A program made the translations under genes and the position numbers. 32,000 nt of DNA from NCBI RefSeq assembly GCF_000019345.1, contig NC_010503.1:390001-422000 (forward strand), written 5' to 3'. Of the stretch, positions 12,004 to 28,549 are shown one piece after another (within the stretch, counting starts at the first letter, position 1; the number at the start of each line of letters is the position of its first letter). The notes beneath the pieces were generated by a model that ran no database searches, was not told the DNA's origin, and was given only the letters and a program-made list of their open reading frames with translations. The stretch is from Ureaplasma parvum serovar 3 str. ATCC 27815. Its GTDB lineage: Bacteria > Bacillota_I > Bacilli_A > Mycoplasmatales > Mycoplasmoidaceae.

Positions 12004-12687
12004 ATGAGTGCTATTAGTAAAAATATTATTATCATTAACAAACCAATAAAATGAACTTCTAATGATGTTGTTCAAAAGGTTAAACGGGTTATTGGTGCTA
12101 AAAAAGTTGGACATGCTGGAACTTTAGATCCTAATGCTTCAGGTGTTTTAGTATTGGGAATTAATGAAGGAACAAAACTATTAACAAAATTAATACTAGA
12201 TAATAAATCATATATTGCTGAAATTAAATTTGGAACATCAACAAATACTTATGATGCAGCAGGTGAAATTGTTTCATCTACAAACCGAATGGTTACATTA
12301 ACTGAGGTTACTAAAATAGTTAAAGATTTTTATAAAAATGATTATTGACAAAAACCCCCACAATTTAGCGCTTTAAAAATCAACGGGCAAAAAGCTTATG
12401 TTTTAGCACGTCAAAAAGTTGATTTTGAAATAGCACCACGATTAGTTAAAATATTTAAATATCAAATTATGGATTTCAATTATGAAAAACAAATTTTAAA
12501 AATTTCTTTACATGTTTCTAAAGGTTTTTATGTTCGTTCTTTTGCTGTTGATTTAGCTACTAAAATTAATAATCTAGCTCATTTATTGACATTAATAAGG
12601 ACGCAAAGTGGACCTTTTGAGATTAAAGATGCAATTGAAATTGAACAAGTCTATGATTATTGAAATAACATCAACAAATATTTATAA
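12004..12687 (+). CDS. truB: tRNA pseudouridine(55) synthase
   Basis: ATG 12004 is in frame with track ORFs 12154..12348 and 12469..12663 through TGA codons. The catalytic motif VGHAGTLDPNASGVLVLGINEGTK is present. The frame reads through TGA at 12661 to TAA at 12685-12687. Confidence 0.9.
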
Positions 12688-13504
12688 AATTAAGCAACAA
12701 TTCGTCATTAATGAATTAATTATTGGTTTTTTTGATGGAATTCATTTAGGTCATATGAATTTATTATCAGATCCTAATAACCAAACTATTTTAACTTTTA
12801 AAAATATCCCACGTAAAATAAAAAAATTATATGATTTTAATGAGCGAATTCAACAATTAGAAGATTTAGGATTTAAAAGGATTTTTATTTATGATATTGA
12901 TCAAAACAATTTAAGTGGGGAAGAATTTATTGATCAAATTTTAAAGCCACTAACTCCAAAAAAAATTATTGTTGGTGCTAATTTTACTTATGGCAATAAT
13001 TTTTGTAATGCATCTAGTCTAAAACAATATTTTAATGTTGAAATTAAAATTATTACTAATGATGTTAGTACAACTAAAATTAAAGAATTAATTATAAATA
13101 AACAGGTTGAAATAGCTAATAAATTATTAATTAAACCATATTATCGTGTGGGAAATGTTGTACGTGGCGATCAAATAGCTCGTAATATTGGTTTTAATAC
13201 TGCTAATATTTTATGTGATAATAATTTAATTGATATTGCTGAAGGTGTTTACAAAGCACAAGTAATTTTTAATAATAAAAAGTATGATAGTGTAGTTTAT
13301 TTAGGAATCCCTAAAACAATTAATACTCGCTCTTTTTCAATGATTGAAGCACATATTTTAGACTTTAATCAAAATATTTATGACGAAAGAATTAAGATTG
13401 TTTTTTTGAAATATTTAGCTCCTAATTTAAAATTTAATAATATAGATGAATTAATCACTGCAATTAAAAATTATATTAAATTGGTTCTTGATAAAACAAA
13501 TTAG
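12653..13504 (+). CDS. ribF: bifunctional riboflavin kinase / FMN adenylyltransferase
   Basis: Track ORF 12608..13504. The N-terminal nucleotidyltransferase motif IGFFDGIHLGH is present, with a riboflavin-kinase-like region at the C-terminus (RGDQIARNIGFNTANI ... EAHILDF). ATG 12653 preferred. Overlaps truB by 35 nt. Confidence 0.85.
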   Translation: MIIEITSTNIYKIKQQFVINELIIGFFDGIHLGHMNLLSDPNNQTILTFKNIPRKIKKLYDFNERIQQLEDLGFKRIFIYDIDQNNLSGEEFIDQILKPLTPKKIIVGANFTYGNNFCNASSLKQYFNVEIKIITNDVSTTKIKELIINKQVEIANKLLIKPYYRVGNVVRGDQIARNIGFNTANILCDNNLIDIAEGVYKAQVIFNNKKYDSVVYLGIPKTINTRSFSMIEAHILDFNQNIYDERIKIVFLKYLAPNLKFNNIDELITAIKNYIKLVLDKTN

Positions 13505-13567
13505 GTATATAAACCAATAAATAATTTTTTATAGTAGTAAAATCTTAATGGCTATTATAAAAAAAAC

Positions 13568-13592
13568 ATAAACTTTCATGGTTTATTTTTTG
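13568..13592 (+). terminator. weak hairpin plus T-run after ribF
   Basis: ataaac (13568-13573), loop tttcatg, gtttat (13581-13586), then TTTTTT. The stem is short and AT-rich. Confidence 0.35.
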
Positions 13593-13646
13593 TTTAAAGT
13601 AGTTGTATATTTAATTATTATAAATAGAGTAAGGACTAATCATTTT

Positions 13647-15314
13647 ATGAAGATGAAAGCTAAGAAATTTTTAATTACAGGATTATTAGGTGTAGTTAGT
13701 TTAGCAACTATTACCACAGTAGCTACAGCTTGTACAAATGGCAATAATCAAAAGGCTAATACAGTAAATAATAAGTCTGATTTAAAAACAAATCCAAATA
13801 TTAATTTAACTCAACAAGATGTAGAAAATTTGGAAAAACAAAGACAACAATGAAGTGAAGATTTAGATGTTTATTTTAATGGTGGGTTAAGTAAAAGTGG
13901 CAAAAATTTTGACCGTATAAATACATTATCATCAAATGCAACGGAATGATTTAAGAATCATCAAAAATTAGCGGCAACACGTGATTCTGGATCATTGGTA
14001 CAAGATGATGCAGCTTATTCATTTGGAATTGCACCCGATTATGTTCATTATAAATGAGTTTCAAAAGATGGTGGCGACGTTTCTCCATCATATTTAAAAC
14101 CATATTGAAATAAAAATTTAACTGAAGGTAGAAACTTTTCAAAATTAGACCCAAAGACTTTGGATGATAATGGAATCGGTGTTTTATTAATATCTGATCA
14201 CCATTATGGTAAATGAAATGATAATTTTTTAAGCAAAAAAACTGTTGGTGGATTAATTATGCAATCACGAGTTTCTGGTTTGCCATCACACTATCCTGCT
14301 GTTCTAACACCAAAATTTTTATTTGATCCTAATTTAAATCCAAATTTAAAAAAATATGCTTCTGCTAATTATGCGTTACCTAATTATTACTCTGACCCAC
14401 TAGATGGGATTATTTTAACAGGAAAAACTTTAGATCGTATTTATGATGCTAAAAAGTTTTCTAATGTTTATAATGCACATGTAGCTGGCAAAACACATTT
14501 TGAGACATTCACAGATTTTGCAAAGGCAATGGTTGATGAAACGCGTCGTGGAATTTCACAATGATCTTTAAAAAATGATAAATGAAAAGATAAAACAGTT
14601 TTAATGGTTATGCCTAACTTTACTCCAACAGCTAAAATGGTAGATGTTAATTTTAAACCAGAAGACTTAGAATTCTTGAGTAATGTTTGCATTAATGAAC
14701 CTATGTATTGTCCAACAATATATAGTGATCCAAATGATAAATATTTACCTGGATTAGGTGCAAAATTCCCTATTCCAGTAAATCATATTTCACAAGTGCA
14801 AAATTATATTGATGATTATGGACAAATTGGTGGAAAAGTATTAAATGGTACTGGTAATCCAGAAGCATCAAAACAAGTTGGCCCAACTTTAGGTGATGCT
14901 TTTAAAGATACAAGTGACGTTGTAGTTTTCTGTTATAACGAATACGGTTTATTAAATTACAAACCCGGAACTGAAGAAGGCGAAGCTTTAGTACAACAAT
15001 TTGAAAAGAATTTAACAAATTATGTTAATGGTTTAACAAAAGAAACAAAAAATCAATTTGTGCCAACAAAAGTTTTAAAAGAAAAACCAGTCGTGGGTAA
15101 GAATTTCTTTATTGAACGTAAAGGTAAGTTCTATGATGCATGTTATGGTTTTGCTGGTCAAGATTTAGTAGTTAATACATTAAATAAATGAACAAGGGGA
15201 GCTAACGCTCAAAATATAGATTTAGGGTATCCTATTTTTAATAAAAATACAGTTAAACACATTAGAGCATTTAAGGATTCTTTAGGTGTTAAAGTTTTAG
15301 ACAAACAAAAATAG
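13647..15314 (+). CDS. lipoprotein, paralog 1 of an unrecognised family (555 aa); first gene of the permease operon
   Basis: ATG 13647 follows TAAGGA. Signal peptide and lipobox: MKMKAKKFLITGLLGVVSLATITTVATA|C. Track ORFs 13578.., 14259..14564 and 14604..15191 are in frame and joined only by TGA codons (hand-checked). Stop is TAG at 15312-15314. Confidence 0.85.
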
Positions 15315-15328
15315 AGAAATAAATAGTT

Positions 15329-16399
15329 ATGCAAATAAAACAAGTAAATATTAATAAAAAAGATCTTTCTATTTATAAAAAACTCATTGAAGCAAAAAAA
15401 TTTGTTAGTACACAAATTCGTCGTCCTTATATGATAACGATTATTGTATTAACATTTATTATCTTAGCTGTTGGTATGTTTTTTATGAATGTTTTTTATG
15501 AAAAATCTACATATTTTGATGCGAATTATAATACTCATGTAACCTATTTTCGAACTTGAGCTAAAGTAGTAGCTGATGATAAAAGTATTTTATTGTATTG
15601 GTATCCACCTATCGTTAAATTATTTGTAGCAATTTCTATGCCGGTTGCTGGATATGCCATTCAGATTACAACTCAGAATCGTTTATCATCACCTTCAACA
15701 TTAGGATACATTCCAGTTTCAATTTTGGCTTATGTAGCAATGTTGATGATTGATCAAGGTAAAAGCTGATTAGTATATGTTTTTGGGTTTATATTTTCAT
15801 CATTTATCATTTTAGTTAATTATATTTTACAACGACAAAAATCTAGTAATCGTTCATTTAAACCAGTTTTAATTGGATTTGCTATATCTGCAACAATTAC
15901 AGCGGTAGGTTTAGTAATTGCTGTTTCACGTCCAAATATTTTAAATCGAGTGACAATTTGAACTGGTGAATTACCAAATGTTTATGAGTGATTAAAATTA
16001 TATATTTCAATGCCTTTAATTTTGATTTGTTTATTTGCTTTTTTAGTATTATCACCAAAATTAAAAATTATGCAACGCGATTTTGCTTTGGCAAAATCTT
16101 TAGGAATCAAAGTTAATTTAATTTTTTGAGTCGTGACAGTTTTAACAGCAATTGTAACAATTGCAACTGTTAATATTACAAGTCCCATGATTCTATTAGG
16201 TTTAATTATTCCAAATATAGTTAGGGCAACATTTAATAAACATGAACCATTATTTGTATTTTTTGTATCTATTGTATTTTCATTAGCATTGTTAGAAGTT
16301 TCATTATTTTTATCACTAAATTATCGTTTTGGTCCTAACTTTTTAATGGCTATTGTTAGTGCATTTGTGTTAATTTTTATTATGCGAAAACACGGATAA
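15329..16399 (+). CDS. FecCD/BtuC-family ABC importer permease (356 aa)
   Basis: Starts 14 nt after the lipoprotein stop. Track ORFs 15329.. and 16133..16399 are in frame through TGA codons. The motifs VAGYAIQITTQNRLSSPSTLGY and LAKSLGIKVN...ILLGLIIPNIVR correspond to BtuC GxxxQxxxxNPLAxPxxLG and ARxLG...FVGLxxPHxxR. Confidence 0.8.
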
Positions 16400-16404
16400 A
16401 TAAT

Positions 16405-17508
16405 ATGAAAAATCCATCACGATTTATATTTATAATAAAAAATAATATTTTAAATACCATTAACAATGCATCATTTATTGAAAATGGAAATTTCAAGAAA
16501 AAATTTCGGGTTTATGCACGCAAGCAACATTTAGCAGCTTGAGTTATTAGTATTGTTACAATTCTTTTTTTATCGTTATTAGTTATGTTTATTAAAATTA
16601 ATAACCAAGGTCAATTATTAAATAATCGGACTCCTTTAGATTTGTTTAAAGTAAATTATGAAACAATCTTACAAATTTGAATTACAGGAGCATCATTAGG
16701 AGCATCAGCTTATATGTTCCAACGGATTACTAAAAATCGATTAGTTGATACATCAACTCTTGGGATAGGTAATGTTTGTTTGATTGGGTTATTTTTTTTA
16801 GCAATATCAATTAATTTTGAAAATTATGGTTCTCAAAAACTTTTTGAAAATTTATTACCTTTTATTTTTATAATATCAGGAGTATGTGCCGGATTAATTT
16901 TGTATTGATTTTCAAAAAAACGAACCGGTTTTAGCCATACAAAGTTAATTGTCTCTGGTGTATTCATTAATTTTATTGCTATTGCTTTATCAATTAGCTT
17001 AAAAGACAATTTAACTCTAGTTGCATCAAATTATATTGACGATCGTTTGTTAGGTAATTTTTCAAACCGTAATAGTACTGAAAAATATTTAAGTTATGCT
17101 GTTTTTTTATTTTTAATGATATGATGCTTTTTGCGTTCTGCTAAATTTAAAGTTGTTATTACAGATACAATGATTGCTGAACAATTAGGATTAAAAGTAA
17201 AATTATTGAATTTAGAAATGATTTTTATCTCATCTTGTTTAACAGCTGTTTCATATATTATGGGAGGAAATGTATTATTTTTAGGAATTGCTGCAGCAAA
17301 TTTAGGGTATGCGGTTTTTGGTAATCGCTTTAGTTCATCAATAATTTTTTCAAGCTTCATCACCATTATCTTTTTAATTTTTGGTCAATTTATTTTAGAT
17401 AATATCGTTCAAAATTTAACTAGTTTGGTATTTGACGCCCCTATTGTAACTCCTTTATTAGTAGCTCCAATATTTACATTTATTATCTTATTTAAAAATA
17501 ATATTTAA
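16405..17508 (+). CDS. second, more divergent FecCD/BtuC-family permease (367 aa)
   Basis: Starts 5 nt after permease 1. Track ORFs 16714.. and 17131..17508 are in frame through TGA codons. Motifs: GASLGASAYMFQRITKNRLVDTSTLG, IAEQLGLKV...VLFLGIAAANLG, and C-terminal PIVTPLLVAPIFTFIIL. Confidence 0.7.
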
Positions 17509-17519
17509 GCACAATCTTA

Positions 17520-17561
17520 GTAGTGAACAAGCCATATTGTTCACTATTTTTTTTTTTTTTT
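17520..17561 (+). terminator. strong rho-independent terminator ending in a 16-T homopolymer
   Basis: tagtgaaca (17520-17528), loop agccatat, tgttcacta (17537-17545), then T16 (17546-17561). Confidence 0.8.
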
Positions 17562-17656
17562 GGGTGGTAAATGGAAAAAAATATATTTATTTTTGTGTAT
17601 TAAAATTAAAGGTATTAATAATTTTTTTAAATAAAAAATAAAGAAAGAATATTGTT

Positions 17657-19291
17657 ATGAAATATAAAAAAATTTGAATTACTTCAATAGCTTCTATTGC
17701 TTTTATAACAACTATTGTAAGTACAACTACAGCTTGTAGTAAAGTTAATAATGAAGTTAAGTCTTCAAATGACATTTTTAAACAAATATTACCAACTAAA
17801 GAAGAACTTACAAATTTAATTAAAAGACGTAAGGATTGAGCTAATGATTTACAAGTTTATTTTGAGGGTGGAAAGTCTGCTTCAGGAAAAGAATTTGAGC
17901 GAATTCAAACTTTAGCAACAAATGCAAGTATATATTATCAAAAGAACCAAAAAATTGCTATGACGCGTGATTCTGGCTCATTATGTCAAGATGATGCCGC
18001 ATATTCATTTGGAATTGCACCAGATATTTCTAATTATCGTTGAAAAGCAGGTGATGTAGAAGAAGTTGTACCACATTATTTATCTTACCTTTATAATCCT
18101 AAATTAACTAAAGGTATGGAACTTAAAGGTGTTAAAGCAGAAACATTAGCTGCTGAGAATGTAGGTACTTTATTTATTGCAGATTTTAAATTTGGAAATT
18201 ATAAAACTAATTTTTTAGATAAAAATAAAATAGGTGGAATTGTTATGCAGTCACGATCATCAGGTTTGCCTTCAAAAACACCAGCTTTATTCATGCCTAA
18301 TTGGTTATTTGGTAAAAATAACCCTTATTTAGAGACTGACGTTAACGCTTCAGCTGGAATTACAGATTTTTTTGTTGATCCATATGATGGCTTAATCTTT
18401 ACAGGTAAAACCTTAGATCGCATTTATGATGCAAAAAAATTTGATAATGTTAATAAAGCGGTTATTGATGGTAAAAGCAATTTTCAAACATTTACAGATT
18501 ATGCAAAAGCAATTGTTAGTGTTGTACGAAAGAATGTTTCGAATTGAGCTAAACAACATAGTTATTGAAAAAATAAAACTGTTGTTATGACAATGCCAAA
18601 CGTAATGAAAGGAGCACGAATTATTGATCCTAATTTTAGTAAAGATGATTTACTATTCTTAGGTAATATTTTTATTCCACAACCTGTTTATTTTCCAATT
18701 TTATATGCAGACCAAAATGATGAATATACACCTGGATTAGGAGCTAAATTTCCTATTCCTAAAAAAGATATAAATGAAGTTCAACGCTATGTAGATAATT
18801 GAGGTTGAATAGGTGGAGCAATTTTAAGTGATGCTACTAATCCTGATGCTGCAAAACGTGTTGGTCCAACATTGGGTGAAGCTTTTGAAGGAACGGTTGA
18901 TAAAGTAATTTATTCATATAATGAATATTTAATTAAAGGATATAAACCAGGAACAGCAGAAGGTGAAGCTATAATTAAAAAATTCGAAGCTAATTTAGCA
19001 AAATATGTAAATAGTTTAGATATAAATACAAAAAATAGTTTTAATCCTACAAGGATTTTAAAAGAAAAGCCAGTGGTAGGTAAAAACTTTTTTATCGAAA
19101 GAAAAGGTAATATTTACGATGCTAATTATGGATTTATAGGTCAAAAAACTATGGTTAATATTTTAAATCGTTGAATGAATGGTGAAAATAGTCCAGAAGT
19201 TGATTTGGGTATTCCTAATTTTACTAAGGATAATGTTAAACATTTACGTGCTTTTAAAGATGAATTAAATGTTAAAAATACTGATGAATAA
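17657..19291 (+). CDS. lipoprotein, paralog 2 (544 aa)
   Basis: Signal peptide and lipobox: MKYKKIWITSIASIAFITTIVSTTTA|C. Track ORFs 18116.., 18587.. and 18872..19174 are in frame, and I translated the N-terminal 459 nt by hand without meeting a TAA or TAG. Stop is TAA at 19289-19291. Collinear with paralog 1. Confidence 0.85.
18347..18505 (+). repeat. 159-nt block identical to 20071-20229 (paralog 2 copy)
   Basis: Base-by-base comparison from gcttcagctggaattacag to cagattatgc shows no mismatch. Flanking coding sequence is clearly diverged. Confidence 0.9.
18839..19291 (+). repeat. 3'-terminal ~450-nt near-identical block (paralog 2 copy) interrupted by a divergent patch at 19075-19153
   Basis: Aligns to 20566-21018 at a constant offset of 1727. 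By manual alignment there are 2 mismatches before the patch, 2 after it, and about 20 inside it. Confidence 0.85.
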
Positions 19292-19383
19292 TAAAAATTT
19301 TACGCATTGGAAGTTTTTATGCATAAATTTTTTAAATTTATTAATTAATCATTTAAACTTAAAAAAGGAATTACTAAAAATAT

Positions 19384-21018
19384 ATGAAGTTGAAGTTTAA
19401 AAAAATCTTATTATCTATATCAACTAGTTTAATAATTTTATCATCAATTATTACAATTGCTGCATGTAGCAATCAAGTAAAATCTAAAACAAATTTTTCA
19501 AAAACAACACCAACTTTAGAAGAATTGACTGAGCTTAAAAAAAGAGAAGAAGCATGAAAAGCTGATTTAGAAGTTTATTTTGAAGGTGGAGTAAGTAAGT
19601 CAGGAAAAAAATTTAATCGAATTGAAACTTTATCATCAAAAGCTAGTTCTTATTATCAAAAAAACCAAAAAATTGCGGTTACTAATGATTCTAGTTCGTT
19701 ATGTCAAGATGATGCACTATATGCATTTGGAATCGCACCTGATTATTCTGGCTTTCGTTGAAAAACAAGCGAACTTGAAGAAGTACATCCTCATTATTTA
19801 AATTATTTATACAACTCTAAACTAACAAAGGGAATGAATTTCACAGGTAAAGGAGCATTACCAGAGAATTTTGCTAAATTAAATGTGGGTACATTATTTA
19901 TTGCTGATTTTAAATTCAATAAGTATAAAGAAAATTTTTTAGATAAAAATGAAATTGGTGGTGTAGCAATGCAATCACGATCATCAGGTTTGCCTTCAAA
20001 AACACCAGCCTTATTCATGCCTAGCTGGTTGTTTGGTAAAAATAATCCTTATTTAGAAACTGATGTTAATGCTTCAGCTGGAATTACAGATTTTTTTGTT
20101 GATCCATATGATGGCTTAATCTTTACAGGTAAAACCTTAGATCGCATTTATGATGCAAAAAAATTTGATAATGTTAATAAAGCGGTTATTGATGGTAAAA
20201 GCAATTTTCAAACATTTACAGATTATGCTAATGTTGCTGTAAAAGCTGTTCGAAAAAGAGTTTCACAATGAGCAAAACAAAATAATAAATGAAAAGATAA
20301 AACAACGGTTATGATTAGTCCTGATGTAATGCCAAATGGTCGAATTGTAGATCCAAACATTACTAAAGAAGATTTATTACATTTAAGTAATTTTTTTATT
20401 ACCCAACCCGTTTATTTACCAATTTTATATGCTGATCAAAATCATCCTTATACACCTGGAATGGGTTGTAAATTCCCTATTCCTAAAAAACACTTAGAAG
20501 ATGTACAAAAATATATTGATAATTGAGGTTGAATAGGCGGTGCAATATTATCATCTAGTGCAGAAAATCCTGATGCTGCAAAACGTGTTGGTCCAACATT
20601 GGGTGAAGCTTTTGAAGGAACGGTTGATAAAGTAATTTATTCATATAATGAATATTTAATTAAAGGATATAAACCAGGAACAGCAGAAGGAGAAGCTGTA
20701 ATTAAAAAATTCGAAGCTAATTTAGCAAAATATGTAAATAGTTTAGATATAAATACAAAAAATAGTTTTAATCCTACAAGGATTTTAAAAGAAAAGCCAG
20801 TTGTTGGTAAAAATTTCTTTATTGAACGTGAAGGAACATTCTGCGATGGTTGTTATGGTTTTATGGGTCAAAAAACAATTGTTAATATTTTAAATCGTTG
20901 AATGAATGGTGAAAATAGTCCAGAAGTTGATTTGGGTACTCCTAATTTTACTAAGGATAATGTTAAACATTTACGTGCTTTTAGAGATGAATTAAATGTT
21001 AAAAATACTGATGAATAA
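19384..21018 (+). CDS. lipoprotein, paralog 3 (544 aa)
   Basis: Signal peptide and lipobox: MKLKFKKILLSISTSLIILSSIITIAA|C, after AAGGAA. Track ORFs 19834.., 20311.. and 20599..20901 are in frame through TGA codons. Stop is TAA at 21016-21018. Confidence 0.85.
20071..20229 (+). repeat. 159-nt block identical to 18347-18505 (paralog 3 copy)
   Basis: Same comparison as for the paralog 2 copy. Confidence 0.9.
20566..21018 (+). repeat. 3'-terminal ~450-nt near-identical block (paralog 3 copy)
   Basis: Partner of 18839-19291. Within the patch (20802-20880) this copy shares exact runs with paralog 1 (aatttctttattgaacgt, tgttatggtttt). Confidence 0.85.
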
Positions 21019-21034
21019 TCCTTCGTAATTATAA

Positions 21035-21095
21035 AAAATGTGAATTATTTCTTTATATTTATAAGAAAGCGTTCACATTTTATTTATTATTTTTA
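21035..21095 (+). terminator. rho-independent terminator after paralog 3
   Basis: aaaatgtgaa (21035-21044) pairs with ttcacatttt (21072-21081). There is an inner tttctt/aagaaa pairing, and a T-rich tail follows. Confidence 0.7.
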
Positions 21096-21175
21096 GAGTT
21101 TATCTAAAAATTTAATTCTTACAAAAAGAATTAAAGTAGAATATATATTAGTTTTATAAAAATAAGGATTAATTA

Positions 21176-21700
21176 ATGAAAAATAAGTATTTTAGAAAAA
21201 ATAAATTTTGGTTATTAATACCAATAAGTTTTGTAAGTCTTGGAAGTATTACATTAGTTGCTACTGCTTGTGTAAAGAAAAATTTTTATCCTAATACATT
21301 TGCAGATGATCAGATTTATATCACTAAGAATAATGAAAAAACTGTTAAGTTTCGTATTAGTCGTAATGATGAAGAAAATAAAAAGTATTTTAAAGATGAT
21401 CTTAAATGAAATACTTTCATTAATAAACTTAAAAAAACTTATATTAATGTTGAAACTGTTATTCCAAAAGAAAACGCAAAACAAAATATTAAGCAACAAG
21501 ATTTATGCATGCGCGCATTACCTGTACAAGTTTTAAGTAATAATAAATATGTTGATATTTACGTAAAGATTCCTGTTTTATTAGCTAATACTAAAATGTT
21601 AGTTGTTGGTGATGATTTACTAAAATCATTTTATTTTGATACAGATAACTTAATAATGAATGCTAAACATTTTCAACCAATTCCTATCAAAATGCTTTAG
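21176..21700 (+). CDS. small lipoprotein (174 aa), unrelated to the large paralogs
   Basis: Signal peptide and lipobox: MKNKYFRKNKFWLLIPISFVSLGSITLVATA|C. Track ORFs 21176..21409 and 21509..21700 are in frame through one TGA. AAGGA ribosome-binding site. Confidence 0.7.
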
Positions 21701-21713
21701 TTTGTTAATAAAT

Positions 21714-21743
21714 AAAAACCTCTTTTTAAAGAAGGAGGTTTTT
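21714..21743. terminator. bidirectional terminator between the small lipoprotein gene and gapN
   Basis: aaaaacctc (21714-21722) pairs with gaggttttt (21735-21743). A/T runs on both sides. Overlaps the gapN stop. Confidence 0.6.
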
Positions 21744-23169
21744 ATTTATTAATGATTATTCCTTTGATTGTTGTCATTGATAAAATTGCATCAACAATAC
21801 CTTGAACACCAAATCCAGAATCTTTAACACCAAAAAAAGGTAAAATATCTGGACCACGTGAACTTGATTTATTAATGTTAATTGTTCCTGATTCAATTTG
21901 TAAAGCTAATTGTTCAATACTTGCATAATTTGTTGTAAAAATACAAGCTTGTAAACCATATTGTGATTGATTAATTAAATCAATAGCTTCTTGTATACTA
22001 TTATAAGTTATAATTGGTAAAATAGGACCGAATGGTTCTTCTCAAGCTACGCGCATTTCTTTTGTAACATTATCAATTACTAAAGGATGCAAAAGGTTAT
22101 TTTTTTCATTATAAACGATTTTTTGGTGTACTATTGCTCCTTTTTTGATTGCATCCTCAACTAATGATAAGTTATATTTTAATGAATTAGAATTAATTAA
22201 TGGAGTAATTATGGGATTTTGTTGTGGTAAACCGACTGTTAAAGCGTCAACTTTTTTGTTAATTAAATTAACTAATAAATCATGATTTTTATGCGAAACA
22301 AATACTCGTTTGATTGCAGTACATCTTTGCCCGCTAAAGCCATAAGCACCTTTAACTATTTCATTAGCAGCTAGTTCAAAATCCGCATCATCTAAAACAA
22401 GGGCTGGATCTTTTCCTCCTAATTCTAAAACTAAAGAAATCTTTGATGTTATTTCAGCAATATGATTGCCTACTTTAGGTCCGCCCGTAAAGCTAATCGC
22501 TTTAACATATTTATTAGTAACTAGTAGATCACCTGTTATACGTGCTTCAGTTGTTAAGCAGTTAACAACTCCTTTTGGAAAACCTACTTCATGAACTAAT
22601 TCACTAATTCGAATACCAATTAATGAACCTTGTGTTGATGGTTTATAAACTAAACTATTACCAGAAACTAATGCTGGTGCTAATTTTGAAATCAATAAGT
22701 TAATAGGATAATTAAAAGGACAAATTGCTAAAACAACACCAACTGGAATACGATAATATGTTGCCACTTTGTTTTTAACATGGTGAACTGTTTCATCAAA
22801 AATAATTGGTTTTTGCATTAATTTTTGATACTCAAAAACTGTTTCGCGTAAATAATCAGCACTTCGTTCAACTTCAATTAGGCTATCTTTTAATCCTTTT
22901 GCAATTTCAGTACTAATAATTTGTGCTAATTCTTGTTTATGTTCATCTAGTTTATCGGCTAATTTTAAAAGTAGATCACAACGATATTTAATTGGTGTGT
23001 CCTTAAATTTTAGATATGCTATATGAGCATTTTCAAAAATAGTATTAATTTCATTTTCATTATGAATGTTAGGAACATAAGCAATAATTTGATTATTAGA
23101 TGGATTATAAACTGGTAGTTTTTCTTTAGCATCAACAAATGCTCCATTAATTAATGTTTTATAGTTCAA
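21742..23169 (-). CDS. gapN: NADP-dependent non-phosphorylating glyceraldehyde-3-phosphate dehydrogenase
   Basis: Track ORF 22042..23169 continues through TGA in MRVAWEEPFGPILPII to TAA at 21742. The ALDH motifs ELGGKD and FGFSGQRCTA are present, and by eye it is collinear with streptococcal GapN over its whole length. TTG start is 8 nt after GGAGG. Confidence 0.85.
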
Positions 23170-23200
23170 ATTAAAAACCTCCTTTATTATTTAAATTAAA

Positions 23201-24190
23201 TTATAGTAATTTAATCCCTTTTTTTAACAATTCATCTTTATATTCATTTGGTCAAACTGAAACTTGTACCTCACCAATGTGTTTTTTGTTTAATAAAAAC
23301 ATACATAAACGACTTTGACCGATTCCCCCACCAATTGTTTGGGGTAGTTGATTATTTAAAATCATTTGATGATAAAAATTATTTTCTTGATCATTTTTTA
23401 AATTAGCAAAATTTGTTTGCTTAATAAAATCTTGTTTGCTAACACGAATTCCCATTGATGATAATTCAATGGCTTGATCATTTAATTTATGATAAACAAT
23501 TAAATCTCCATTTAAATTTCAATTATCATATTCTGGAGAACGTATTGATTGAATATAACCTGATTTTAGTGGATATCCAATTTGGTATATAAAAATTGCT
23601 TTATGAATTTTTGCAAACTCATATTCACGTCGAGATGGTGATAAATGTGGATATAAATCTTCTAATTCTTGTGAACTAATAAAAGTAATACTATCTGGTA
23701 AAATAATTTGTTTTGGATTATATAATTGATCAATTTCTAATTGAACAATTCTAATTGTTGAATAAATTTTATTAACGATTGATTTTAAAAAATCTAAGTT
23801 ACAATCTTGGTTATTAATTAAAATTTCTCAATCTCACTGATCAACATAAATGCTATGAATTTCATCGATGTCATCATCTGCACGAATTGCATTCATATCA
23901 GTATACAAACCTTCATATAAACTAAAACCATAATCTAATAAAGCTAAACGTTTTCATTTTGCTAGTGATTGAACAATTTCAAGTGTTTTATCTAATTTTT
24001 TAGCATAAAAACTTACTGCTTTTTGTTTATGGTCTAAATGATCATTTAGACCTGATTGTCCTTCAACAAATAATGGTGCTGTTACACGTGAAAGATTTAA
24101 ATTTTTTGCAAAATGTTTTTGAAAAGAATTTTTAATCTCTACAATTGCTTTTTGTGTTTGATTAATTTTAGCTTTTTGTAATTGATCCAC
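23201..24190 (-). CDS. asnA: aspartate--ammonia ligase (asparagine synthetase A)
   Basis: The C-terminus [28 protein letters not shown] is the AsnA signature. Track ORFs 23252..23455 and 23954..24235 are in frame and joined by TGA codons. GTG start at 24190 is 9 nt after AAGGAG. 329 aa. Confidence 0.9.
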
Positions 24191-24824
24191 GTTTTTTAAC
24201 TCCTTTGTAAAAATTAATGTAGTAAATAATACCACTGATTACAGATAATGATGTTGCAAAAAATAAAGGAATATTAAATAAATAAACGTTTTTTCATGAT
24301 GAGGTTAAGCTTAGTAAAAATAAAATAAAGCAAATACTAATAAATAGTAGAATGGATTTAATTTTGCCAAAAATATTTGCTGGAATAATAATTTTCTTAC
24401 TTGAAGCAAACATTCGTAAACCATCAATAAAAATATCTCGTAAGATATTAATAATTGTTAAATAAGCTAGTGCTGTATGATCTAGTGTTAAACAAATTAA
24501 AACACCATTAACAAGGATTTTATCAGAAATAGGATCTAAGATTTTCCCTAAATTTGAAACTAAATTATATTTACGAGCTATATATCCATCTAAGAAATCA
24601 GAAAAAGCAGCAATAATAAAAATAATTGTTGCACTTAAACGCAATGCACTAATATTGGCATCTAAAACTTCATAGACAATATTTAAATTTTTTGTGTAAA
24701 AATCAACTAATAATAAGATGATGCAAATAAGTGCTAAAAAAATTCTAAAGATAGTGATAATATTAGGAATGTTTCTAAAAAAAGGTGATGATGAGATGTT
24801 TTTTTTAAAATTCAATTTGGCCAT
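24168..24824 (-). CDS. pgsA: CDP-diacylglycerol--glycerol-3-phosphate 3-phosphatidyltransferase
   Basis: CDP-alcohol phosphatidyltransferase motif [27 protein letters not shown]. Track ORF 24294..24824 reads through TGA to TAA at 24168. Overlaps the asnA start by 23 nt. Confidence 0.9.
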
Positions 24825-26169
24825 GACTTCGTGGGAATGGGATTGTATCTTTAATATTATTAACTCCTGTTACATACATCACTAAACGCTCAAAACCAAT
24901 TCCAAAACCTGATGACATATAATATCCGAAACGACGTAAATCTAAATATCATTGTAAACTTTCAATTGGCATTTTTAATTCTTGACATCGTTTTAATAGT
25001 TTCTCATAACTATCTTCACGTTGTGATCCACCCACTAATTCGCCAACGCCTGGAATTAATAAATCTGTTGAAGCTACAGTTTGTTGATCATCGTTTAATT
25101 TCATATAAAATGCTTTAATATCCTTTGGATAATTTTGTAAGAACACAGGACCTTGATGATATGTTTCACACATGTATCTTTCGTGCTCTGATCCTAAATC
25201 CATTCCAAAAAAGATTTCATTATTTTCGAATTGATGACCATTTTTAACAGCATCAGCTAGGATTTTAACTGCATCTTTATATTCAATACGTTCAAATTTA
25301 GACTCAACAACTTTTTGTAGTTTTTTAATTAAATTTTCATCATTTCTTTGAGCTAAAAATTCTAATTCTTGTTGATTTTTTTCTAAAACAGCCTTAATAA
25401 CATGTTTAACTAAATCTTCAACAATATCTTGCATACCTTTTAAATCAACAAAAGCCATTTCAGGTTCAATCATTCAAAATTCTGCTAAATGACGATTTGT
25501 GTGAGATTTTTCAGCTCTAAAAGTAGGACCAAATGTATAAACATTACCAAAAGCTTGTGCGTATGCTTCAGCTTGTAATTGACCTGTTACAGATAAATGA
25601 GTTTGTTTACCAAAAAATTCTTCATTATCAAATTTTTGAATACTAAAAGTTTCGCCAGCTCCTTCAGCATCATTTCCTGTAAACAATGGTGCAGCTAATC
25701 AACTATATTCGTTTTGATTCATAAATTCATGAACTGCAAAAGCAAGTGTTGCCCTCACTTTCATAATGGCATGAAATAAATTTGTTCTTGGTCTTAAATG
25801 AGCATTTAAACGCAATGTTTCTAAATTTAAATCATTGTTTGATAATAAAAAATCTTCATCACTTTGTTTTAAAATTTGAGCATTTAATACTTCTAGTTCT
25901 AATGGTTGTTTAGCTGTTGGAGTTAATTTAATTACACCTTCAATAACAACAGCGGCTCACATTCGTGCTGCAGCTATTTCTTCATAATTGTCAATTTTAT
26001 CAACACGATATACAGCTTGTAAATTTGTTAAAGAACTACCATCATTTAGAACTAAAAAACCAATTTTTTTTGAATCACGGTTTGAACGAACTCAAGCTTT
26101 AATTTGTATCTTTTGGCCTTCAAGTTTTACATAGTCTTGATTAAAAATTTCTTTAATTTTTAATTGCAT
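24805..26169 (-). CDS. asnS: asparaginyl-tRNA synthetase
   Basis: Class IIb motifs [21 protein letters not shown] (motif 2) and [15 protein letters not shown] (motif 3). The N-terminal OB region is [21 protein letters not shown]. Fragments 24949..25473 and 25474..25686 are joined by TGA. 454 aa. Confidence 0.95.
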
Positions 26170-26211
26170 AATAAAATCATTACCTTTTTTTTCTTTTTTA
26201 AATAATATATA

Positions 26212-26252
26212 AATAAAAAAGCAAAACATCATTGATTAATAAGTTTCGCTTT
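26212..26252 (-). terminator. candidate terminator after the coiled-coil gene (minus strand)
   Basis: On the minus strand, aaagcgaaac pairs with gttttgcttt (10 bp including one G:U), the loop is 15 nt, and a T-run follows. Confidence 0.4.
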
Positions 26253-26262
26253 AAATTAGTTT

Positions 26263-26886
26263 TTATTGCTCGTTTTTTGCTTCTAGTTTTTGTTGCTTTT
26301 CAAGACGCTTTTGTTCACGTTGACGTTTCTTTTCTTCTTGTTGTTCATCAAAACGCTTTTCAGCAGCAACCTTATCTTGTTGAGTTTGTTTTACTAATTC
26401 AAAAATCTTTCAACCAGCATCTGACATACCATTATTTTTTAAACGACGATATTTAACGTATTTGCCAGATTTAACAGGTGTTTTTGGTTCTTTTTCTTCT
26501 TTAATACTTTCTTGTTTATTAACTTGATTATCTTGGTTAACATAAACAATTTTCTCAACAATTTTTTCGATTGGCTTTTCAACTTCAATAACTTTTTCAA
26601 TATAAACAGGTTTTTCAACTTCAACAATTTTTGTATTGCTTAGGTTTGTTAAATCATTTAAATCAACACGTAATTTAACAATTTGTGTTTCATGATTTAA
26701 TGACACTTCTTGTTCATAAACATTATTAGTTTCACCATCATCACTATCATAATTTTCGTGTTCACAATAATGGTTATATTCAATTGTTTTTAATTTTCTT
26801 TTTAAATTATCAACTTTATTAGCTAAATCACGAAGCTCTAATAATTCGCTAATTTGTGGATCATATTTTTTATTAGTTGCAGACAT
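26263..26886 (-). CDS. hypothetical charged/coiled-coil protein with EKP/IEK repeats (207 aa)
   Basis: Track ORF 26410..26898 reads through TGA (DAGWKIFEL) to TAA at 26263. ATG 26886 is 5 nt after GGAGG. It contains KIVEVEKPVYIEKVIEVEKPIEKIVEKIVYV and a K/E/Q-rich tail. Confidence 0.65.
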
Positions 26887-26956
26887 TTGTTCCTCCACTA
26901 AACGACTTGGACATTTATATTTAAATATAACATTAAAATATTATTAAATATTAATA

Positions 26957-26965
26957 ATTTTAACA
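26957..26965 (-). promoter_or_regulatory. candidate extended -10 (TGtTAAAAT, minus strand) for the coiled-coil gene
   Basis: The reverse complement of 26957-26965 is tgttaaaat, about 70 nt upstream of ATG 26886. Confidence 0.3.
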
Positions 26966-27025
26966 TAATATAAGGAATTGAAATGTGGTTATGATCATCA
27001 AGAATTAATAATTTATGAAATTTAT

Positions 27026-28549
27026 TTATTCTTCATCATTTTCATCATCACTAACTTCTAACAAAAGTTTATTTGGATCAATTTTTCTAATTGTTAATTC
27101 ATTGATTTTCTTTTTTAAAGTATTTAGTTTTTTGTTAATAATATCTTCAGCACTTTCTTCAATACTTTCTGCTTTTTTAATAATAGCTTTTGAATCATCG
27201 ATTATTTTTTTAGTTTTATCATTGATGTATTTTAGAGTGTTATCAACAATATCTTTTTTTAATTCATCAAGATTTTCTTCAATTTTTGCACGATCTTCAT
27301 ATCTTATGATTTGTGAATTAATTTTTGCTTTAAGGGTTGCAAAATTTCGAATCATATCAACTAAAGGAATGAAGTATTGTGGCCGTACAGCAAACATATT
27401 TTTGTATTCATTAATTTTTTTAATTACAAAATGATCTTCTGGTTCTAATTCAGTTACTAAAATTGCATATTCAGATTTTTGATTAATACGATCTTGATCT
27501 AATTTTTTATAGTGAGCACTATTTTTTGTACCTTTTTGATTGTCAAAAAATTCTGTTTTCGCTTCAATTGTCGCACTAAAAATTAATTTTTTATCATCAT
27601 TTGACATTTCTTTACCAAAATCAAAAAATTCTAATAAAAAGTCAGCTTTTTTACCATCAATTGCTTCATTAATTTTAGTGAATGTCATATCAGGACATGA
27701 AAATGAGTAAGTTTCATCAAATTTATTTTTTAATCATTGTTCAAGTTCTTCACCAACAAGTTTAACATTTGATGATTTTTCACGTTTTAATTGTTCAATA
27801 CTTTCTGTTAATTTATGGATCTCTTTATCTTTTTTACTTTCAAGTTCCTTAATTTCAACAATTTTTTTAGACTCTCAATTTTCTTTAGCAGCCTTCATAT
27901 TATCTTCATGAGCTTGAATAGCAAATTTTAATTTTTCTATTTCAATATCTAAATCTATTTTATCTTTAATAATTTTTTGATATTCATTACTTTCTTTAAA
28001 ATTAATAATTGCCATTTTTTCAGCATTATCTAATTTAATTTCTTGTTTAGCAATAGTATTTTTTAACGATTTTGTTTCTTCATCAAATTGGCTTTTTAAC
28101 TTTAATTCTATATTTTCAATTTCTTTTTTGTAGCTTTGTTCATTACTTTCAATTGTCTTATTTAAAGAATTAATTTTTTCTTGTGCTTTAATTAAATTTT
28201 TGTATTCATCACTATCTTTAAAATGAGCAATTGCTTTATTTCCCTCATTTTTTAATTTTTCTTTTAATTCATCACGTTGTTTTTCTAAATCATATCTTTG
28301 TTTAACTAACTCATTGTAATCACGATCATTAGCTAAAAAATTATTTCTTCAATTTTGTTCTTCTTCTTCACGAATTTTTTTGATAAATTCATCACGTTGT
28401 TTTTCTAAATTTTGATTAAAAGATTCATAAATAGTTGAATTTTCATCTTTGAAAACCAAAATCTCATTGGTATTAATCGGCTCAAGAATTTCAAATTCTA
28501 ATTTTTCAATATTAATTAATTTAATTTTTTTATTAGCTGTAGTTTTCAT
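27026..28549 (-). CDS. DUF2130-like protein: long N-terminal coiled coil plus C-terminal PD-(D/E)xK-type nuclease-like domain (507 aa)
   Basis: Track ORFs 28349..28549 and 27026..27688 are in frame and joined through TGA codons. GEELEQWLKNKF ... KADFLLEF ... ATIEAKTE resembles the D...ExK core. AGGAG lies 6 nt upstream of ATG 28549. The family assignment comes from memory of DUF2130 architecture, not from a search. Confidence 0.6.

Follow-up and report, generated by a model that had tools for sequence, protein, structure and literature searches.

Mosaic identity between two tandem lipoprotein genes of Ureaplasma supports concerted evolution by recurrent segmental gene conversion

A 32,000-nt stretch of the Ureaplasma parvum serovar 3 str. 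ATCC 27815 genome (contig NC_010503.1, positions 390001-422000; hereafter the window, whose own coordinates are used throughout) carries two adjacent lipoprotein genes, paralogs 2 and 3 (p2 and p3), in which near-identical blocks alternate with strongly diverged segments. We found that within the blocks the two genes of one genome group together, whereas outside them each gene groups with its ortholog from another strain. As judged from these sequence comparisons, concerted evolution of p2 and p3 by recurrent gene conversion is supported, in line with the claim of an earlier sequence-only reading of the window that repeated segmental conversion had occurred among tandem paralogs.

Mosaic identity along p2 and p3

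p2 (17657-19291) and p3 (19384-21018), on the forward strand like their segments, p1 and the two permease genes described below, are complete open reading frames (ORFs) under genetic code 4, each encoding a lipoprotein of 544 amino acids (aa), with 76% protein identity between the two. Each gene has its own start codon, signal peptide and lipobox cysteine (Cys27 in p2), and their upstream regions are unrelated, being no more alike than shuffled sequence. A codon-guided alignment of 1617 aligned columns contains 301 mismatches, and sliding identity along it is strongly uneven rather than uniform, ranging from 53-80% to 100%.

The lowest values (53-80%) occupy the first ~590 nt, which include the N-terminal thirds already described as diverged by the sequence-only reading. 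This 5' segment gives way to a partly homogenised shoulder of ~90-91% identity (18245-18346; p3 copy 19969-20070) and then to block A (18347-18504; p3 copy 20071-20228), an exact run in the alignment. Block A had been given as 159 nt long; it is real and 100% identical, with a length of 158 nt. Beyond it lies a diverged middle segment of ~72% identity (18505-18838; p3 copy 20229-20565), paralog-specific and matching the ~330 nt of renewed divergence noted before. The genes end in a 453-nt 3' block (18839-19291) consisting of block B1 (18839-19074; p3 copy 20566-20801), a diverged patch (19075-19153; p3 copy 20802-20880) in which 21 of 79 positions are mismatched, and block B2 (19154-19291; p3 copy 20881-21018). 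Outside the patch only four mismatches remain, two in B1 (18964 and 18971) and two in B2 (19212 and 19257), so that the earlier description of ~450 near-identical nt with about four mismatches around a ~79-nt patch with about 20 holds closely. Homology had been said to end at the stop codons, and identity indeed runs just one base beyond them. The mosaic is present in the independent assemblies G017 (a GTDB representative, U. urealyticum-type genome), L019, L032 and L033, and is thus not an assembly collapse peculiar to the source genome.

Significance and silent-site divergence

In a GENECONV-style permutation, in which the polymorphic columns of an alignment of p2, p3 and a third paralog (p1) were shuffled 20000 times, the observed runs of 49, 41 and 29 sites were reached in 0/20000 shuffles (P<5e-5). 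When the permutation was restricted to synonymous differences, using only codons with the same residue, the longest run had P=3e-4 and the second and third were again reached in 0/20000 shuffles. Thus, the mosaic pattern is not due to chance.

Synonymous (dS) and non-synonymous (dN) divergence between p2 and p3, calculated per segment by the Nei-Gojobori method, follows the same pattern. Values of dS were 0.84 in the 5' segment, 0.49 in the shoulder (dN 0.013), 0.03 in block A, 0.73 in the middle segment (dN 0.27), 0.04 in B1, 1.49 in the patch and 0.00 in B2, that is, ~0-0.04 in the blocks versus 0.7-1.5 outside. Orthologous dS in the blocks, calculated between the window alleles and those of strain L019 (introduced below), was 0.37-0.77, with B1 at 0.37, and silent sites there are therefore free to change between strains. 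Both analyses had been named as checks by the sequence-only reading, and both came out in its favour.

Comparison with a diverged U. urealyticum strain

A U. urealyticum draft genome, L019 (GCA_000255395.2), has the same gene order, and its p2 and p3 alleles (A2 and A3) are ~12% diverged from those of the window (W2 and W3). We classified informative sites of this quartet according to whether orthologs agree (O) or paralogs of the same genome agree (C). In the homogenised parts nearly all sites were of the second kind (shoulder, 1 O and 6 C; block A, 0 O and 9 C; B1, 0 O and 15 C; B2, 0 O and 16 C), whereas the diverged parts showed the reverse (5' segment, 77 O and 10 C; middle segment, 52 O and 5 C; patch, 12 O and 2 C). 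The totals are 46 C versus 1 O in the blocks including the shoulder, and 141 O versus 17 C in the diverged segments and patch. Trees built for each segment change topology in step with these sites, with support of 0.9-1.0. The cross-strain comparison, a further check that had been proposed, thus revealed an equivalent mosaic in L019, made of different bases.

In B1 and B2, W2 and W3 are ~1% apart and A2 and A3 ~2%, while the window and L019 lineages differ by ~10%. Divergence within each genome is therefore far below that between lineages, which indicates that both lineages were homogenised after their split. Block A differs in this respect, W2 and W3 being identical and A2 and A3 18 nt apart (11% diverged); this points to an old event followed by a probable more recent conversion in the window lineage. 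The block borders coincide in the two lineages.

A paralog-specific island and the p3 cysteines

Not all of the diverged patch is paralog-specific. What distinguishes p2 from p3 in both lineages is a 26-nt core island (19100-19125; p3 copy 20827-20852), delimited in a column table and a 12-gene alignment, together with position 19153. The island peptide reads RKGNIYDAN in p2 and REGTFCDGC in p3. Between p2 orthologs the patch has accumulated 11 synonymous and no non-synonymous changes (dN 0), as compared with a dN of 0.17-0.19 between paralogs. Three cysteines of p3 are absent from p2: the middle segment contributes C362, and the island C487 and C490. All are kept in both W3 and A3, and these p3-specific cysteines fall in precisely those two downstream parts that conversion has spared. 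We infer that selection removes conversion products in which the middle segment or the island would be overwritten.

Positions 19075-19108 of the patch (34 nt) hold six clustered synonymous differences peculiar to the p2 genes of the window lineage (W2, U2 and B2), the other state being common to A2, A3, W3 and the p1b genes (a p1 type described below). The sequence-only reading had noted that p3 shares an exact 18-nt run with p1 in the patch, where the codons of p2 differ. The shared run was confirmed, but it is not a sign of conversion from p1: it occurs also in A2, A3 and the p1b genes, and so is ancestral, with the window-lineage p2 as the odd copy. We accordingly rejected p1 as the converter of the p3 patch, informative sites being just 11 versus 5 and the shared run ancestral. 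A donor for the p2 version of the patch was also sought, and no second genomic copy of a p2-specific 27-mer was found within 3 mismatches. Nor did a third donor for the patch come to light, the genome holding only three close paralogs.

Fusion genes, copy number and chimeric contigs

A single gene replaces p2 and p3 in two complete U. parvum genomes, CP021988.1 and CP021991.1, as well as in several other contigs; L024, L028 and L030 are among the sequences with this arrangement. Of 300 diagnostic nucleotides, the copies that we compared (CP021988.1, our L029, 6001-7623, and the Logan contig L024) have the p2 state at 298 and the p3 state at the final two, and the sequence 3' of the gene is the same as that following p3. 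In CP021988.1 the flanks are 0.0% diverged from the window. The breakpoint lies between 19153 and 19212, and the sequences identify the gene as a p2::p3 fusion, the apparent product of unequal crossover within the first 58 nt of B2 (19154-19211) with deletion of one 1727-bp unit. Copy number at the p2/p3 locus thus varies among near-identical U. parvum strains.

p3 can also be interrupted. In G017 (L015 10976-12610) a G-to-T change at the equivalent of window position 20650 creates a TAA stop after 422 codons, and records of several U. urealyticum strains list the same truncated p3 protein.

Three metagenome contigs carry other mosaics: a p3 with the p2 middle segment (L032), a p2 with the p3 core (L033) and a p3 5' half joined to a p2 3' half (L022). 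All of their breakpoints fall inside identical blocks. L022 ends in the p2-p3 spacer and is a cyclic path through block A. We did not count these chimeras as proof of ongoing conversion, given their identity to the co-resident copy and the cyclic structure of L022.

Fold and predicted function

Apart from the lipoprotein signal peptide, the proteins matched no family in Pfam (E<=0.01) or NCBIfam, Peripla_BP_2 included; a PDB sequence search with the family profile likewise gave no match. Only 20 of 1.84 billion cluster representatives belong to the family, and wherever the source gives a name it is Ureaplasma. We modelled p2 with AlphaFold (AF2) from a 23-sequence alignment, obtaining a predicted local distance difference test score (pLDDT) of 88 and a predicted template modelling score (pTM) of 0.88. 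Foldseek returned 14 matches to this model at E<=1e-3, all of them class III siderophore/heme binding proteins with a probability of ~1.0, including Rv0265c, MhuP, PiaA, YfiY, SirA, HtsA and CeuE. Template modelling (TM) scores normalised to the target were 0.41-0.64, the best being 0.57-0.64, and those normalised to the query were only ~0.35, p2 being about twice the length of its matches.

This fold, together with the adjoining FecCD permease genes, supports p2 as an enlarged substrate-binding protein. Our model thus supports the assignment of p2 and p3 as probable lipoprotein substrate-binding proteins of a FecCD-type ATP-binding cassette (ABC) importer, with a ligand that would be of the iron-chelate or heme type. 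p2 is like HtsA, SirA, CeuE, PiaA, FhuD and Rv0265c/MhuP (class III, cluster A) in fold, and it is lipoprotein-anchored and encoded beside FecCD permeases. It differs in its size (544 aa versus ~290 aa), in having no Pfam or PDB sequence match and in belonging to a Ureaplasma-only family. In the p2 model the island forms the end of strand 478-482 and the following loop, before a long helix at 495-508. The equivalent element presumably contacts the ligand in CeuE and HtsA, which we take as a lead and not as a test.

The surrounding locus and exchange between species

The source genome is a single closed contig of 751,679 bp. The GC content of the window is ~25%, and its reading frames close under code 4 only (TGA read as tryptophan). 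After truB and ribF the gene order is p1, two FecCD permease genes, p2, p3 and a gene for an unrelated 174-aa lipoprotein. p1 is a code-4 ORF at 13578-15314, with a likely true start at 13647, and encodes a lipoprotein with a signal peptide and lipobox cysteine. The permease genes between p1 and p2 (15329-16399 and 16405-17508) match PF01032 with E 3e-40 and 5e-57. Between them and p2 lies a 12-bp hairpin followed by a T16 run (17519-17561), the sole terminator-like site detected in 17400-21300. A genome search for further close paralogs found none beyond p1, p2 and p3, the next best protein being 30% identical.

p1 also has a composite origin. It is p1a-type through 15017 and p1b-type from 15036, with the crossover in the 18-nt identical stretch 15018-15035, and relatives (G017, L019, L020 and L029) retain p1a, an extra 366-aa FecCD permease gene and p1b. 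The sequences thus identify the p1 of the window as a p1a::p1b fusion. Concerted evolution of p1a and p1b was considered and none was found, the two being 40-80% identical throughout apart from one conserved window of 90%.

From ~13000 to ~22500 (the 3' part of ribF to gapN) the window is only 0-1% diverged from G017 (contig C1 of 873,729 bp, ~401300-413100), whereas the flanks are 4-19% diverged. This indicates that the importer locus, ~9.5 kb in window coordinates, was in all likelihood recently exchanged between species. G017 matches the window mosaic at 328/341 variable sites, and we rejected it for dating the conversions, the whole locus being a recent interspecies exchange. Downstream, ~13000-19000 of metagenome contig L020, which encodes a protein named U. 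parvum, corresponds to window positions 23000-28500 and is 9-15% diverged from them, more than U. urealyticum is; L020 could be mosaic or represent a separate lineage. L019 carries two extra small genes (12498-13276) between the 174-aa lipoprotein and aldehyde dehydrogenase genes, one of 101 aa with HTH_38 and sigma-70 region 4 matches and one of 112 aa, both absent from the window.

Discussion

The tandem duplicates p2 and p3 are old, with a silent-site divergence of ~0.7-1.5 outside the blocks. We consider it highly probable that these tandem duplicates of a binding-protein gene have undergone recurrent segmental conversion in at least two lineages, with retention of an island and with fusions arising by crossover. 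RecA is present in the genome (PF00154, E 4.8e-96), and a profile search of the genome for MutS did not find MutS domain V. RecA-dependent homologous recombination between the direct repeats p2 and p3, within one chromosome or between sister chromosomes, would repeatedly copy three stretches non-reciprocally from one gene to the other (the shoulder with block A, B1 and B2), and would have done so independently in at least two lineages after their split. Tracts would begin and end within stretches that are already similar, so that homogenisation returns to the same blocks time after time, and the tracts would tend to stop where identity falls to ~70%; the block borders would in this way be self-reinforcing. 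The 5' half, the middle segment and the 26-nt island would be kept, most likely because overwriting them costs one paralog its distinct function, the middle segment and island being where the cysteine triad of p3 lies. Resolution without crossover would yield conversion, and resolution with crossover would yield loss of one repeat unit and a p2::p3 fusion.

Other origins of the identical blocks account for the data less well. Strong purifying selection on the protein or nucleotide sequence would fit the low dN of the blocks in all comparisons and the family-wide conservation of some flanking motifs, but silent sites in the blocks differ between strains (dS 0.37-0.77) while being identical or nearly so within a genome (0-0.04), the permutation restricted to synonymous codons is significant and the tree topology switches between segments, making this explanation extremely unlikely. 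We attach just as negligible a probability to an assembly collapse or consensus artefact in the source genome. Short-read assemblers can go wrong at repeats of 158-236 nt, and the public contig L022 is cyclic through block A; nonetheless, the source genome is one closed contig, the independent G017 assembly reproduces its mosaic at nearly all variable sites and L019 has an equivalent mosaic with different bases.

The coincidence of block borders in the two lineages would also be expected from one ancient segmental replacement or partial duplication with no recurrent conversion since. This is very unlikely in view of B1 and B2, which in both lineages are 1-2% diverged within a genome as compared with ~10% between lineages, and of block A, whose identity in the window lineage and 11% divergence in the L019 lineage require separate events after the split. 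Exchange of alleles between strains or species does occur at this locus, as the low divergence from a U. urealyticum genome over ~13000-22500, with flanks at 4-19%, attests. Yet such horizontal transfer moves orthologs, and cannot make the p2 and p3 of one genome alike while both differ from those of another genome; we therefore give it little credence as the source of the mosaic.

Several points weigh against recurrent conversion with a selectively protected island. Selection on the island is deduced from dN/dS across just 26 codons, and p3 is dispensable in some strains, as seen from the nonsense mutation in G017 and the loss by fusion in others. The comparison with G017 cannot date the conversions because the locus was recently exchanged between species. 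In addition, each swapped part of L032, L033 and L022 matches the co-resident paralog at 100% identity for 728-1142 nt and could be an assembler mis-join, and no conversion event has been caught in progress.

A more active role for the blocks is also conceivable, although we consider it rather improbable. They may be fixed recombination linkers through which Ureaplasma populations exchange three functional modules between the two genes (N-lobe, Cys362-containing middle segment and CxxC-containing island), generating combinatorial variation of a nutrient receptor at a low rate. If so, chimeras such as L032 and L033 would have altered ligand specificity or antigenicity, copy number would shift among one, two and possibly three genes, and the locus would be more than a passively homogenised duplicate.

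Recurrent conversion of the kind proposed here is mechanistically ordinary, a familiar mode of evolution in duplicated genes, and its closest analogue is found in babA/babB and homA/homB of Helicobacter pylori. In the H. pylori outer-membrane paralogs babA/babB, homA/homB and sabA/sabB, sequences cluster by gene over the 5' and middle regions but by strain over the 3' segment, which has been read as concerted evolution by RecA-dependent intragenomic conversion, and chimeric genes occur (PMC3960876). The Helicobacter genes are adhesins at distant loci, whose expression and binding are switched by conversion at rates that can be measured, whereas p2 and p3 are adjacent, encode predicted ABC-importer binding lipoproteins and have three separate tracts and a protected 26-nt island. 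Among minimal-genome Mollicutes, Mycoplasma genitalium makes mosaic surface-protein genes through homologous recombination of repeated segments (MgPa/MgPar), the MgPar donors being partial and silent and serving to diversify a single expressed operon. In contrast, neither p2 nor p3 is a partial copy: each of these complete genes has a start and a lipobox, and recombination makes the two more alike instead of diversifying them. Nor does the locus have the silent, promoterless, partial donors of programmed antigenic-variation cassettes of the MgPar, vlsE or pilS type; here both partners are complete ORFs with unrelated upstream regions, and there is no other close copy in the genome. The tufA and tufB genes of Salmonella and Escherichia coli are reportedly kept near-identical at silent sites by RecA-dependent gene conversion, as described by Abdulkarim and Hughes in 1996. 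In the tuf pair homogenisation extends over whole genes that share one function, whereas p2 and p3 are homogenised in segments and their unconverted parts appear to have diverged functionally. Our literature search found no description of conversion at the Ureaplasma p2/p3 locus, and a comparison of 19 Ureaplasma strains is silent on iron and gene conversion.

The p2/p3 locus thus provides a clean, well-bounded bacterial case of recurrent segmental conversion with a small resistant island, in a minimal-genome human commensal and pathogen that has RecA and in which a MutS domain was not found. Recurrent conversion and crossover here explain why near-identical Ureaplasma strains differ in the copy number and boundaries of their "iron transporter" lipoprotein genes, as well as the doubtful chimeras in short-read assemblies of the locus, and imply that orthology-based typing of these lipoprotein genes will mislead. 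Finally, the island and middle segment point to residues that probably separate the functions of p2 and p3, namely C362, C487 and C490 of p3, which would make them a target for biochemistry.

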